This document shows positions 9,056 through 16,747 of a stretch of DNA of 46,457 nucleotides, piece after piece. The number at the start of each line of letters is the position of its first letter. Position 1 is the first letter of the stretch. Source of the stretch: a phage; the NCBI GenBank assembly GCA_026328835.1, contig GCA_026328835.1_4850.1. One strand, 5' to 3'. The position numbers and the translations under genes are program-made. The notes under the pieces are model-generated. The model saw only the letters and a program-made list of their open reading frames with translations. It was not told the DNA's origin and made no database searches.

Positions 9056-9904
9056 ATGGCAGTAAGATACGACATATTCACCACACGCGAAGATGGCGAG
9101 GTGATGCTTGATGAGTTGATGTCCGCTGACTGGACTGCGCTACAGGTTAACGTGATGCCACTTGATTCATCTGGCGCATACACACCACTTGTCAGTGGAA
9201 CTGTGTCCGTGAAGGTGTCGCCATTTGAATCTGGCAACTACTGGATTGACGTCAACAATAATAATTATTACGGCGTAGCGCTGCGCCTGAAGATAATCAA
9301 AACGGAATTACCAGCAGCAGTAAGTTCGCTGCGCGTTTCGGTGTGGCGCGCTGGCGTTTCTCCACAATCGGTAGTAAACCTTCAGCCTGACGTGGCGATA
9401 AGCGATATCACCACGCAGTCATATATTGAACGCGCCAATAAGCAAGGCAAGCTGTTCACCGCGTCGCGTAGAGTAACTGATGTTTCTGGCGGCTCAAACA
9501 TTGACAGCATTTTTATCACCGGAACAAAGCAGGTGATATTCAACCAGCGCATTATTGGTTACACAGGGAAAGGTGTTATTGCGTCAATCTATCGCGGCGC
9601 AGTTGCCACAGGAGGCACAGCAGCAGAGATTAATAATCCAAACGATATAACACCACAGGCAGCTACGGCGCAGCTGCTGACTGGCGCTACTGTGACAAAC
9701 ATCGGACAGTTGACAGTTGCAGCAACGTATAGCGAAGGGAATGCATCGAATCAGGGGCAGGGTAACTCGCAGGCTAGATTAGGTGAGCAGATTATCATGG
9801 CACCAAACACGACGTACTTACTTCGCATAACATCACTGGATACTGCGGTGCAGAATATCAATGCTTACGTTTCGTGGTTTGAGGATGATACTTATCTGGC
9901 GTGA
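9056..9904 (+). CDS. putative virion structural protein
   Basis: internal ATG 9056 (MAVRYDIF...) after terminator preferred over track start 8852. Confidence 0.45.
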   Translation: MAVRYDIFTTREDGEVMLDELMSADWTALQVNVMPLDSSGAYTPLVSGTVSVKVSPFESGNYWIDVNNNNYYGVALRLKIIKTELPAAVSSLRVSVWRAGVSPQSVVNLQPDVAISDITTQSYIERANKQGKLFTASRRVTDVSGGSNIDSIFITGTKQVIFNQRIIGYTGKGVIASIYRGAVATGGTAAEINNPNDITPQAATAQLLTGATVTNIGQLTVAATYSEGNASNQGQGNSQARLGEQIIMAPNTTYLLRITSLDTAVQNINAYVSWFEDDTYLA

Positions 9905-14766: not shown

Positions 14767-14767
14767 A

Positions 14768-14792
14768 TAAAGCCGCATGAAGCGGCTTTATT
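14768..14792 (+). terminator. rho-independent terminator
   Basis: aaagccgc-atga-agcggcttt then T-rich tail. Confidence 0.7.
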
Positions 14793-15311
14793 ACTGGTTT
14801 AAGCATTGCCAGCGTGCTTTCTTAATATCCAGTCCCGTAACCCATACATACCCCTACATATGATTGCGATAATGCTGGATATTAAGTGTTGTTGTGGCCG
14901 GTGCTGATCTCCGGCTTGCGGTTATTTCAGACTCTCACGGGCGTTTAATTGCCCCGCCGAACAGCTCTTTTCCGCAATAGCTGCAATGTCTTTCGCGCAT
15001 CAGCCTGCGCATTCACCACAACGGCAAGAACACTGGCTAACCACGCGCGCAGACTCTTCAGGATTATCTGCTCAATGCTCTTACCTGTTGTGTTCCCTGA
15101 CTTATTAATCACACCTCAGGGACGCAGTGCGCCGAATTTGTTTACAAGGAATCGGAATACCTTGCTGACTTACAGGCTATTACGCCGCCATCAGAACAAC
15201 ATCATCGTTTGCATTTGTCTTTGTGGTCAGTTTCTAAAAAGTCCGCAAAGTCGCTCACGAAAACTATCTGAAATACAATCTACACCACAAAATAATCACT
15301 GTCAACACCTG

Positions 15312-15320
15312 TGATATAAT
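15312..15320 (+). promoter_or_regulatory. extended -10 promoter element TGATATAAT
   Basis: TG-N-TATAAT 36 nt upstream of major tail gene; followed by palindrome gttagc-a-gctaac. Confidence 0.5.
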
Positions 15321-15356
15321 CACCACGTTAGCAGCTAACACAATTCGGAGATCGAA

Positions 15357-16076
15357 ATGGCTATTTGTGCAAATGATAAAGGCGTTCTGGTCGGTCGCAT
15401 GACCAGACTGTTCCTTGCTGAAGGGTGCGGTGACGCAGTTCCGGATGCGGGAGACTGGAAATATTTAGGCTCAACCACCAGTAAAGGTGTTGACTACTCG
15501 CCGCAGACCACTACGTCGGAAGCGGATACCGCTGGCGGTTTTGTTTCCACTCTCGTTACCAGCTCTGATATGACCATCAGTGCAGAGGTTGAAATCCGCA
15601 AGAATGACCCGAGCGATGAATTTGGCTTCCATCGTCTGGTTGAGATTTACGCCACTGAACTGAAAGCGCGTCGTCAGCCTTCCTTGTGGGTGCGTGAAGT
15701 AACTGGCGCGACTATCGTTACCGCGTATTGCAACATCACCAGCATCAGTTATGAAGGTGGCACAAACGACATCGTGACTGGCAGCCTTGAGTTCAAGGTT
15801 TACGATTCCGACAGCGTTACCGTCGAAAGCCTTGAGCCTCTGGCGTTCACTACCGACCTGCAATCAACTGGCACGGCTGGCAGCCCGTTAACTGTTGCTG
15901 TTGAAGGTGGCGTTGCACCATACACCTATGTGTGGCGAAAAGATGGCGTAGTTGTTGGTGGCGAATCTGGCGCAACACTGGCAAGCCCAACAGCTGGTGT
16001 ATATACCGTCACGGTAACTGATTCTTCTACTGACCCGGAAATTATCATCAGCACGGCTTGCACTGTGTCCGCATAA
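15357..16076 (+). CDS. major tail protein with C-terminal Ig-like domain
   Basis: 239 aa; C-terminal ~80 aa Ig-like (PLTVAVEGGVAPYTYVWRKDG...GVYTVTVTD); followed by terminator. Confidence 0.6.
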   Translation: MAICANDKGVLVGRMTRLFLAEGCGDAVPDAGDWKYLGSTTSKGVDYSPQTTTSEADTAGGFVSTLVTSSDMTISAEVEIRKNDPSDEFGFHRLVEIYATELKARRQPSLWVREVTGATIVTAYCNITSISYEGGTNDIVTGSLEFKVYDSDSVTVESLEPLAFTTDLQSTGTAGSPLTVAVEGGVAPYTYVWRKDGVVVGGESGATLASPTAGVYTVTVTDSSTDPEIIISTACTVSA

Positions 16077-16079
16077 AGA

Positions 16080-16108
16080 AAAAGCCCCGAAAGGGGCTTT
16101 GTTTTATT
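16080..16108. terminator. bidirectional rho-independent terminator
   Basis: aaagcccc-gaaa-ggggcttt between convergent genes. Confidence 0.7.
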
Positions 16109-16304
16109 CTTGTGGTGGTTCTGGCAACGGCATCCAGTGCGTTACATATTTTCCGTAGTGATTCCAGAATGGCTTTCTCTCGTCGTCAGGAACAATGTAG
16201 TAGTCGTGCTGAACGGCATTATTCAAAGTTTCATACACCAAGAACTCTTTATCTGTACTACCGTTACCAGGTAGCAGTTCACTACACTTAATCCACTGAC
16301 TCAT
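16104..16304 (-). CDS. DUF551-like phage protein
   Basis: 66 aa; W...LP ... HWMPLPEPP pattern. Confidence 0.45.
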   Translation of the reverse strand: MSQWIKCSELLPGNGSTDKEFLVYETLNNAVQHDYYIVPDDERKPFWNHYGKYVTHWMPLPEPPQE

Positions 16305-16444
16305 ATCACCTTATCCTCATCAAAAATCACACCAATAACGCGAAGCAAGTCTTTCGCCATTCTCTCTGCTTCTTCGTAATCGTAACCTGCATCAACATAC
16401 AGTTCAGTGTAGAAAATCAGGTCTGCTTTTGTTTGTTCGTTCAT
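16301..16444 (-). CDS. hypothetical small acidic protein
   Basis: hand-translated 47 aa; ATGA overlap with downstream gene. Confidence 0.3.
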   Translation of the reverse strand: MNEQTKADLIFYTELYVDAGYDYEEAERMAKDLLRVIGVIFDEDKVI

Positions 16445-16453
16445 GACTAAGCC

Positions 16454-16747
16454 TTACATCCCTTGCTTTTCACACAAAGTAACAGCCACATTGCGCAATT
16501 GCTCTTTGGTCATGTCCTTGCGTGCATAAACCATTTCTACGATAGCAAGGCCGATCATTTCTGCTGCTTCGTTGTTTTTTGCAGCACCTTTTACCACAAC
16601 TTCAGCAAGATTCTTGCTGATACCGTTATCGCGAGCATCAGCAGTATTTAATGCGATGTCGCCAATATTCTTGCACACCTCGGAAGTTGCTACAGCAGAG
16701 AAAGAAGAAACCAATAGTGCAGACGCAATCAACATTTTAATTTTCAT
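16454..16747 (-). CDS. secreted/periplasmic small protein (YmgD-like, two Cys)
   Basis: N-terminal signal peptide MKIKMLIASALLVSSFSAVA; two Cys about 70 aa apart. Confidence 0.45.
   Translation of the reverse strand: MKIKMLIASALLVSSFSAVATSEVCKNIGDIALNTADARDNGISKNLAEVVVKGAAKNNEAAEMIGLAIVEMVYARKDMTKEQLRNVAVTLCEKQGM

Follow-up and report, generated by a model that had tools for sequence, protein, structure and literature searches.

In real transfer-messenger RNAs (tmRNAs; gene ssrA), the resume codon GCA lies at nt 90-92 in a U85/A86 context, two stop codons lie in the loop of helix 5, and the molecule follows an H-type pseudoknot design (PMC1168896). Surveys of tmRNAs reported phage copies only in mycobacteriophages, in Bacillus phage G and in mycobacteriophage DS6A, whose form consists of the tRNA-like domain (TLD) only and is thought to inhibit the host tmRNA; 79 phage sequences were reported later, by a pipeline that rejects truncated forms (PMC4131195, PMC11915505). 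Here we analysed a non-coding gap of 590 bp (14767-15356) between a tail-completion-like gene and the major tail gene of a phage, in a contig of 46,457 nucleotides (GenBank assembly GCA_026328835.1, contig GCA_026328835.1_4850.1; the whole contig is called the window, and its positions are used throughout). We propose, with moderate confidence, that the gap is a leftward non-coding RNA unit of ~500 nt, an RNA island without tRNAs, whose 5' module, M4, would be derived from tmRNA, anneal to the host tmRNA and block or re-template its tagging. A literature search on the motifs, the tag peptides, tmRNA-like RNAs, phage tmRNAs and RNAs antisense to tmRNA found no prior description of such an element.

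M4 forms the 5' part of the leftward RNA (15094-15268 on the minus strand, ~175 nt). The combination that marks the mRNA-like part of a tmRNA, a resume codon in an A-rich context followed by a short tag and stop codons, is present: GCA at 15212-15210 opens an SsrA-like frame (15212-15183) that is closed by two stops (15182-15177). Its context, ..AAAGACAAAU GCA AAC GAU.., compares with ..AAUAGUC GCA AAC GAC GAA AAC UAC GCU UUA GCA GCU UAA UAA of E. coli SsrA, which specifies ANDENYALAA. In the linker before the resume codon, positions -4 to -1 (AAAU) were invariant and A-U-A stood at -6 to -4 in most variants, like A84-U85-A86 of E. coli; the linker region also aligned to the Rfam tmRNA_permuted consensus ...UAAaUGCaAACGA. 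The tag frame was exactly 10 codons long in every true homologue and followed the pattern AND[DE]xx[LM]x[AV]A plus stop. There were 13 intact tag variants (ANDDLMMVAA, ANEEMYLAVA, ANDEQFLAVA, ANDDLMLMAA and ANDDYKLAAA among them) and two with a changed first codon, and the variant peptides ended in A-A or V-A before the stop. Synonymous changes comprised all four GCN codons at the last position, UUG/CUG, GAG/GAA and GUU/GUA, and variability at the three codon positions was 0.20, 0.10 and 0.28. By our own estimate, the chance of finding AND[DE]...AA-stop at a given position is ~7e-10. An in-frame UAG lies eight codons upstream of the tag with no start codon between, which argues against ordinary initiation of the frame. 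Conservation of the tag at the peptide level favours its use as a putative template.

Base pairing in M4 was assessed in an alignment of 28 sequences from five phage families, with slid-partner controls and 500 shuffles. The results showed that the 19 pairs of four helices (helix 5, stems 1 and 2 of pseudoknot A and stem 1 of pseudoknot B) were 96.0% paired, against 31-48% for slid partners. Changes on both sides had occurred in 11 of the 19 pairs, and the observed score was reached by none of the 500 shuffles. The stop codons lie in the loop of a helix-5-like stem-loop, as in tmRNAs; one pair of its stem switches from A-U to G-C in 13 of the 28 sequences, and the inner stem shifts its register between subfamilies. 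Two H-type pseudoknots follow helix 5, where real tmRNAs usually have three. Pseudoknot A was 96% paired as a whole (31-48% in slid controls), with both-side changes in three of the five pairs of stem 1 and in all four pairs of the crossing stem 2. In pseudoknot B, a C-G pair of stem 1, the hairpin, switches to G-C or U-A, and stem 2 occurs in unrelated complementary versions (GCCC/GGGC, GGCGGGAG/CUCCCGCC, AUCCCGU/ACGGGGU and AUCC/GGAU), with the loop GGUGUGAUUAAUAA almost invariant. Five Rfam tmRNA models, including tmRNA_permuted, alpha, beta and RF00023 at positions 83-140, matched the tag spot in the window and in seven homologues with 11-33 bits (E from 1e-1 down to 9e-4), in alignments that cover the resume/tag region only.

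The 5' arm of M4 is antisense to tmRNA, with ssrA of E. coli MG1655 as the sole pairing target. The paired stretch of the target comprises the 3' half of pseudoknot 1 (PK1), the resume codon and the first tag codons. RNAduplex gave -43.3 kcal/mol for the window arm, compared with -29.2 +/- 2.8 for 200 dinucleotide shuffles (z = -5.1), none of which was as good. The duplex is collinear and interrupted: UAGUUUUCGU (15257-15266) pairs with ACGAAAACUA in host tag codons 3-6, GCGAC with GUCGC at -3 to +2 of the resume codon, UUUGCGG with CCGCAAA and UUUUUA with UAAAAA. The same tmRNA site was found for 25 of the 28 variants, at -40 to -49 kcal/mol (z = -3.3 to -6.5); no shuffle out of 200 did as well for 22 of these 25, and one or two did for the other three. 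Pairing of the arms with their own downstream body was far weaker (-17 to -37 kcal/mol). In the window arm, 41 of 46 aligned positions (~89%) equal the reverse complement of E. coli ssrA at nt ~56-108, and across variants the figure is 37-41 of ~47; in the L118 and P1-like subfamilies, AGUUUUCGUC-a-CGUU-a-GCGAC is a near-perfect antisense of GUCGCAAACGACGAAAACU. Columns paired with tmRNA had a conservation of 0.92 versus 0.76 for unpaired ones, and most indels fell in the unpaired linkers. Neither a PK1 upstream of the tag nor any conserved internal pairing of the arm was detected by RNAalifold in the ~55 nt before the tag, though these are highly conserved. Codons 3-6 of the phage's own tag differ from those of the host, indicating that the arm is directed at the host tmRNA.

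The model that we propose builds on these sequence features, on covariation and complementarity, and on the distribution described below. The unit would be transcribed from the sigma-70 promoter at 15305-15277 to the terminator at 14791-14767, as a mosaic RNA island common to many enterobacterial phages. M4 would be a tmRNA-derived RNA without a TLD, carrying a ~45-nt antisense arm in place of the acceptor/PK1 part. It would anneal to the host tmRNA over the 3' half of PK1, the linker, the resume codon and tag codons 1-6, and so open PK1 and mask the host resume codon and first tag codons. The M4 resume codon would then stand 12 nt beyond the heteroduplex; the E. coli resume codon, at G90, lies 11 nt after PK1, with the PK1 boundaries taken in part from PMC1168896. 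Such a hybrid would be like a natural two-piece tmRNA, with the tRNA-like part from the host and the template from the phage, and the outcome would be either a block of trans-translation or the addition of a phage-specified tag. The downstream modules would act as flanking or processing hairpins and as cargo resembling small RNAs (sRNAs), with tRNAs after them in relatives.

A more specific form of this model, which we consider rather unlikely, makes M4 a trans-acting surrogate template: it would invade charged tmRNA-SmpB, the heteroduplex would replace PK1, and the phage tag would replace the host one. Rescued ribosomes would resume on the phage codon and add ANDDVVLMAA, ANEEMYLAVA, ANDDLMMVAA or others. 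SspB binds the ENY motif and ClpX recognises the LAA end of the SsrA tag. With the SspB-binding ENY lost and the LAA end altered, the phage tag would change the fate of the rescued polypeptides.

Several observations weigh against a tmRNA-directed M4. No TLD was found near it by ARAGORN in the window and more than 60 homologous loci, and the TLD columns were deleted in the Rfam alignments. Lacking this domain, M4 cannot work as a tmRNA, be charged or enter the ribosome alone, and because the domain is absent everywhere M4 is not a member of the tmRNA family. All tmRNA scores of M4 stayed below the Rfam gathering thresholds (47-84): the window reached 18.6-25.3 bits against 47 for RF04321, the best homologue, IME11, reached 33.1 bits, and RF00023 gave 11-13 bits against 47. 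A plain local alignment of the whole RNA with E. coli ssrA was non-significant (score 23, shuffles 24 +/- 3.5); the likeness of M4 to ssrA lies in the pattern, the covariance-model matches and the antisense arm. Conservation of the tag frame could stem partly from constraints of the helix-5 stem, and an ssrA fragment duplicated long ago in inverted orientation could have left the arm behind as a relic. Only the 10-nt seed AGUUUUCGUC is kept in three variants (L091, L137 and L173, z about 0) and in two Rosenbergiella prophages. Finally, M4 is almost invariant inside the window's own phage group, so that selection is not measurable there.

Two related interpretations were rejected. M4 is not a complete one-piece or permuted tmRNA, since no TLD was found in any context. 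An acceptor-like "terminal helix" with a G.U at position 3, formed by the 3' strand of an upstream long hairpin (SH, described below) and the 5' strand of a downstream one, does not hold either, since SH covaries locally and not across M4 (L171, L138, IME11). In phage swi2 (L010), ARAGORN called a "tmRNA" at 689-1063 on the minus strand; its tag, AKAVRLRKCSFRCGECAG, is nonsense, and as the 3' half of a tRNA-Met serves as part of the structure, the call is almost certainly a false positive, and a genuine tmRNA-like tag frame lies ~100 nt upstream of it. In IME11 (L054), a minimal tRNA-like element at ~1330-1265 on the minus strand (UCCGGUG...UCUGG-UUCGAGU-CCAGA-CGCCGGA-ACCA) has a 7-bp acceptor, a canonical T arm and an ACCA end without an anticodon arm, within a 2-kb unannotated stretch that also contains M4, SH and M2. 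The features of the gap and its borders are listed in Table 1.

Table 1. Features of the gap and of the genes at its borders, in window positions, from the 5' end of the leftward RNA onwards; promoters, terminator and genes last.
Feature	Position	Strand	Basis or remark
M4 5' arm GAUAGUUUUCGUGAGCGACUUUGCGGACUUUUUAGAAACUGACC	15225-15268	-	antisense to E. coli tmRNA nt 54-108
A-rich linker ACAAAGACAAAU upstream of resume codon	15213-15224	-	invariant columns in alignment A1
SsrA-like tag frame GCA AAC GAU GAU GUU GUU CUG AUG GCG GCG UAA UAG	15177-15212	-	ANDDVVLMAA and two stops
Helix-5-like stem-loop, stop codons in loop	15165-15194	-	outer 4 bp 96% paired
Pseudoknot A: stem CAAGG/CCUUG, loop CCGA with downstream UCGG	15132-15164	-	covariation
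Pseudoknot B: CGCACU with GGUGUG inside conserved loop GGUGUGAUUAAUAA of hairpin UCCCUGA/UCAGGGA	15094-15131	-	covariation
SH long hairpin CACAAC-A-GGUAAGAGCAUUG (39-nt apex) CAGUGUUCUUGCC-GUUGUG	15017-15092	-	covariation supports local hairpin
M2: closing stem GUUGUGG/CCACAAC, GCGCA-ggcuga-UGCGC, variable centre, GCCGG-agaucagca-CCGGC	14891-15022	-	STnc100-like architecture
M1: 12-bp inverted repeat hairpin with conserved 42-nt G-tract-rich loop	14821-14886	-	compensatory and wobble changes
Small pseudoknot AAGCA-cg-CUGG-caa-UGCUU-aaa-CCAG, 3' end of M1	14794-14819	-	possible; sequence only, invariant in 38 sequences
Sigma-70-like promoter TTGACA-17-TAGATT	15305..15277	-	pattern scan, 10/12 matches; region 100% conserved in 10 relatives
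Two-way hairpin terminator AUAAAGCCGC-uucau-GCGGCUUUAU	14767-14791	both	10-bp perfect inverted repeat, predicted
TGnTATAAT-type extended -10 TGTGATATAAT (15311-15321) and 5' untranslated region with ribosome-binding site GGAG	15309-15356	+	sequence; 100% conserved; predicted
Tail-completion-like gene, 124 aa	14392-14766	+	left border of gap
Major tail gene	15357-16076	+	ATG at 15357 = right border of gap

The minus-strand promoter is the better sigma-70 match and stands back to back with that of the tail gene, and its TAGATT element is retained in other contexts (L082, L149, L168). The leftward RNA is predicted to start near A15269/G15268. The promoter and 5' untranslated region of the tail gene lie outside this RNA; the motif TGATATAAT, which a sequence-only reading of the window had assigned to that promoter, is indeed there (CTGTGATATAATCA at 15309-15322, 100% conserved in relatives). 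The same reading had offered a regulatory site as one explanation of the gap, and as the main explanation a site acting only on the tail gene finds no support: the modules recur in lambdoid late leaders and in P1-like and N4-like phages without an adjacent tail gene. An 8-bp perfect inverted repeat, TTTGTGGT/ACCACAAA (15220-15227 and 15284-15291), joins the linker before the tag to the promoter spacer. Beyond the tail gene, three small minus-strand ORFs (open reading frames; 66, 47 and 97 aa, 16104-16747) converge on its end; the 97-aa ORF has an N-terminus resembling a signal peptide, and relatives annotate a superinfection-immunity or moron-type gene at the equivalent position.

Downstream of M4, SH occurs in 76 distinct versions that share the stem CACAAC-A-GGUAAGAGCAUUG ... 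CAGUGCUCUUNCC-GUUGUG. Pairing was 91-100% at most stem positions, a U.G pair and a U-U mismatch being conserved, and the hypervariable apexes (~30-110 nt) are mutually unrelated in sequence, some of them holding tRNA-like fragments. The irregular helix of ~20 bp has a geometry that may be compatible with an RNase III site. The SH segment of the window (15011-15092) is 89% identical over 82 nt to the lambda hairpin immediately 3' of tR' in the Q-S late leader, and P1-like phages carry repeated copies of SH between their tRNAs and other modules. A reading of SH as an integron attC-like site or a miniature inverted-repeat transposable element was rejected: there is no integrase or transposase context, and the core motifs do not fit.

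M2 has the architecture of STnc100, with a closing stem ..UGGUG/CACCA.., a 5' hairpin after GAAU and a CCGG..CCGG 3' hairpin at the closing stem. This stem covaries (GUG/CAC, AUGA/UCAU, CUG/CAG and GUUGCG/CGCAAC). The STnc100 model (RF02076, threshold 47 bits) found no match in the window at E < 10; for sister modules of M2 it gave 38.3 bits in RCS47 and 33.7 bits in Ag3, both below 47. Between 14887 and 15023 the window shares 97-98% identity with Stx phages and P1-like phages, and M2 reaches the same figure with unannotated sequence in these phages and in hundreds of E. coli prophages. The central GUUGUG (15017-15022) can pair with CACAAC at 15087-15092, which extends SH, or at 14891-14896, which closes M2; both pairings show compensatory change (GUUGCG with CGUAAC and with CGCAAC) and may be alternative folds.

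M1 is confined to the phage group of the window and a few others (BUCT618, a Pantoea prophage). Its stem is the 12-bp inverted repeat CTTAATATCCAG/CTGGATATTAAG that the sequence-only reading had placed at 14821-14832 and 14875-14886, and we found it exactly there, 12/12 complementary and with arms 42 nt apart; by our own estimate, ~0.005 such repeats would be expected by chance (590 bp, arms at most 150 nt apart). The loop (14833-14874) reads GGGG..GGG..GGGG on the minus strand, with an extra copy of the 10-nt unit UAUGUAGGGG in DS8 (L004), and is a possible G-quadruplex or protein-binding site. Within the leftward transcript, SH, M1 and M2 would most plausibly serve as hairpins for processing or stability and as cargo resembling sRNAs.

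The window belongs to a group comprising Skatevirus, Deseoctovirus, Cedarrivervirus and Shuimuvirus (Sf11, IME207, DS8, C1, Akira, swi2 and BASEL phages Bas77-81). In relatives the gap holds minus-strand tRNA genes (Arg-UCU and Ser-GCU, Met, Ile, or Arg and Met) or a small ORF on that strand. Without exception these inserts lie between the terminator and the hairpin of the 12-bp repeat, at the equivalent of ~14790-14794, as judged by pairwise BLAST and record annotations; the form without an insert, the "empty" one, is that of the window, AB4P2, Sa179lw and C1. ARAGORN found no tRNA gene in the whole 46-kb window and RF00005 gave no match at E < 10 in the gap, which ruled out a hidden tRNA or pseudo-tRNA. 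An nhmmer match of 15149-15104 to the tRNA-Thr of RCS47 was discarded as low-confidence, resting only on the common CCUUGUAA. The earlier suggestion that the gap is the remains of a deleted gene is right to the extent that the one or two tRNA genes or the small ORF of relatives are missing here; the other ~560 bp, however, are conserved modular non-coding RNA sequence common to many unrelated phages, not decayed coding DNA. Alignment of these ~560 bp with relatives showed strongly conserved blocks, exchanged between phages, that alternate with hypervariable, indel-rich segments.

HNH homing endonuclease genes lie just upstream of the tail-completion gene, in the first ~120-350 nt of the locus, in five relatives (L010, L013, L014, L018 and L006) and not in the window, which fits a recombination hotspot. 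One of these relatives, L006 (OR544125.1, "Acinetobacter phage vB_AbaM_AB4P2"), is ~84% identical to the coliphage/Salmonella-phage group over the whole gap and has the same gene order; its Acinetobacter host label and the "M" (myovirus) in its name appear doubtful.

Pieces of the gap matched 665 phage records, and the RNA modules were unannotated in the records seen. The core (15126-15264) was found in Ackermannviridae, N4-like Schitoviridae, P1-like phages, HK620 and FelixO1-like phages. In every context the element is oriented with local transcription, and tRNAs, where present, lie 3' of it. The gap as a whole matched 1,319 of 5,426 complete E. coli genomes and the core module M4 591 of them, at 484 places on P1-like plasmids and 150 on chromosomes, where PGAP annotates nothing. 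Species-representative genomes added six prophage copies in five further genera of Enterobacterales (Rosenbergiella, Pseudocitrobacter, Rouxiella, Erwinia and Pantoea); these six were the only matches of that scan, and no bacterial tmRNA with the M4 module was among them. One viral contig with SH units (L159) carries a tRNA with a CUA anticodon, of amber-suppressor type, at 9535-9610 in a cluster of six tRNAs (ARAGORN tRNA-Pyl).

The sequence-only reading had described a long gene-poor spacer, and this description stands, as the gap contains no conserved ORF. Its one plus-strand candidate, a 121-aa Arg-rich ORF with a TTG start (14949-15314), exists without a ribosome-binding site and is not convincing as a gene. 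That this ORF or a 55-aa minus-strand ORF (14945-15112) encodes a protein is extremely improbable, although both frames are real and plus-strand ORFs are annotated here in several deposited genomes (a hypothetical protein in Bas80 and others). Substitutions in the 121-aa ORF among relatives lacked codon periodicity (0.159, 0.140 and 0.162 for positions 1, 2 and 3), indels interrupt its frame, relatives have unrelated, indel-bearing sequence in place of its central part, and the longest plus-strand stop-free stretch varies from 54 to 168 aa; the 55-aa ORF falls in the hypervariable SH apex and M2. The minus strand, by contrast, has a minimum free energy z-score of -4.25 versus -3.0 for the plus strand. 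The 12-bp stem of M1 shows one compensatory switch (U-A to C-G) and six kinds of single change that give G.U on the minus strand, versus one kind that does so only on the plus strand. The minus-strand sense is also that of the promoter match and of the tRNA genes in relatives, and it accords with the transcription direction known from other phages (pR' in HK620 and lambda, dmt in P1-like phages). The real signal of the gap lies on the minus strand and is that of a non-coding RNA. A structured RNA, another of the earlier suggestions, is thus borne out insofar as the 12-bp repeat is an RNA stem with a compensatory change, but this RNA belongs to the other strand, and its structure goes well beyond a single hairpin. 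That reading had not included the terminator, the minus-strand sigma-70 match, the minus-strand signal or the lack of tRNAs in a window whose relatives have them. The plus-strand "hypothetical proteins" over the window-type gap in Bas80, Bas77, Bas81, AB4P2 and KFSST1 look spurious, and the P1-type coding sequences "Upl" and "Plp" of RCS47 (L053, NC_042128.1, 984-1595), antisense to an array of SH/M2-type modules, are probably spurious ORFs.

A non-coding RNA could also arise or act in ways other than the one we propose. A cis-acting scaffold for processing or stability (by RNase III, RNase E or RNase P) of a tRNA operon or a lambdoid late mRNA, with the likeness of M4 to tmRNA incidental, is unlikely, even though tRNAs lie 3' of the array in most contexts and a ~20-bp helix with a conserved mismatch and wobble is often seen in processing sites. 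SH moreover follows directly on lambda tR', in a late leader for which RNase III sites have been reported (Daniels et al. 1988, as cited in PMC7547250; exact positions unconfirmed), and Stx phages have a separate promoter for the tRNAs of the late-leader region (PMC7547250). Yet the whole array is kept in the window despite zero tRNAs, and a scaffold leaves the tag frame, the resume context and the 45-nt complementarity to tmRNA unexplained; it could hold for SH, M1 and M2 alongside the tmRNA-directed M4. Trans-acting Hfq-type sRNAs that pair with host mRNAs like other sRNAs of prophage late leaders, above all M2 with its resemblance to STnc100/PasD, and with tmRNA merely one target of M4, are distinctly unlikely as the explanation. 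The STnc100-like architecture and the sub-threshold Rfam matches of sister modules speak for them, as does the mapping of PasA/C/D, STnc100, AgvB, AsxR and StxS to the lambdoid Q-holin leader; the M2 of the window, however, lacks an STnc100 match even at E < 10, and the collinear complementarity of M4 goes far beyond a typical seed length.

A relic or recombination scar, in which sense and antisense pieces resembling ssrA are inert leftovers of an ancient capture of host ssrA at a hotspot that swaps tRNA cassettes, and conservation reflects recent common descent and horizontal spread, is more improbable again. It would account for the extreme mosaicism with exchanged segments, the HNH endonucleases and varied tRNA sets nearby, the near-identity of M4 within the group of the window and the tRNA-like fragments in some SH apexes. 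It is opposed by the 96% pairing of M4 with many double compensatory changes across unrelated phage families, since pseudoknots maintained by covariation are not expected of relics, and by the intact 10-codon frame with its synonymous changes and an arm still complementary to the host although the phage tag codons have diverged.

If the proposed model is true, M4 would be the first known relative of tmRNA in enterobacterial phages, and the first known without a tRNA-like half yet with an arm antisense to the host tmRNA. Non-coding DNA that has long been ignored, such as the lambda late leader past tR', the P1 "plp/upl" region and gaps of kilobase size in N4-like and Vi01-like phages, would then connect phage infection with ribosome rescue in a way open to experiment. 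Should M4 also be a surrogate template, phages would have a new kind of counter-measure, by which they reprogram ribosome rescue; it would occur in lambdoid, P1-like, N4-like, Vi01-like and Skatevirus-like phages and, among complete E. coli genomes, in ~11%. The proposed model could also account for the association of M4 with phage tRNA cassettes, for which a role against translation-targeting defences has been suggested. Among current annotations, several "hypothetical proteins" and P1 plp and upl are probably artefacts on the strand opposite RNA genes. With a covariance model of M4, hundreds of phage genomes and ~600 E. coli genomes could be annotated, and the predicted tags could be sought in proteomics data.

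Among known systems, species 1 and 2 (RNA C and D) of phage T4 are structured RNAs co-transcribed with phage tRNAs. They resemble the present unit as unexplained structured RNAs in that company, but share no sequence relation with it and have no known tmRNA features. The RNase III region of the lambda late leader and T7-type sites are similar to SH in that a ~20-bp irregular helix is repeated between functional RNAs, although T7 sites have no counterpart of the hypervariable SH apex. The prophage late-leader RNAs STnc100 (RF02076), PasA/C/D, StxS and AgvB/AsxR occupy the lambdoid niche between Q/pR' and holin, are mosaic and lie next to tRNAs, and M2 shares the architecture of STnc100. That a phage RNA can pair with a host RNA and so neutralise it has a precedent in AgvB and AsxR. 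None of these published Q-holin sRNAs has been described as linked to tmRNA, whether by resemblance or as a target, and M4 differs from them in lacking its own terminator-type 3' end here.

The TLD-only form of DS6A and the complete phage tmRNAs (Bxz1 group, Bacillus phage G) are similar to M4 as phage-borne tmRNA relatives. DS6A, however, has the TLD only, whereas M4 has only the mRNA-like and pseudoknot part plus the antisense arm, and the hosts of M4 phages are Enterobacterales, for which those surveys list no phage tmRNA relative. Compared with tmRNA (RF00023) and the two-piece or permuted tmRNAs (RF04321, RF01849-51), M4 lacks the acceptor stem, D-loop analogue, T arm, CCA, G3.U70 and PK1, has the host-antisense arm in place of the 5' part and two rather than three post-tag pseudoknots, and falls below every Rfam gathering threshold. 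It shares with them the resume context ..AUAAAU GCA AAC GA.., the 10-codon AND[DE]..Ala tag, UAA and a second stop in a helix-5-type loop, and H-type pseudoknots directly downstream; and the active form that we propose for M4 would, like the two-piece tmRNAs, consist of two RNAs joined by base pairing.

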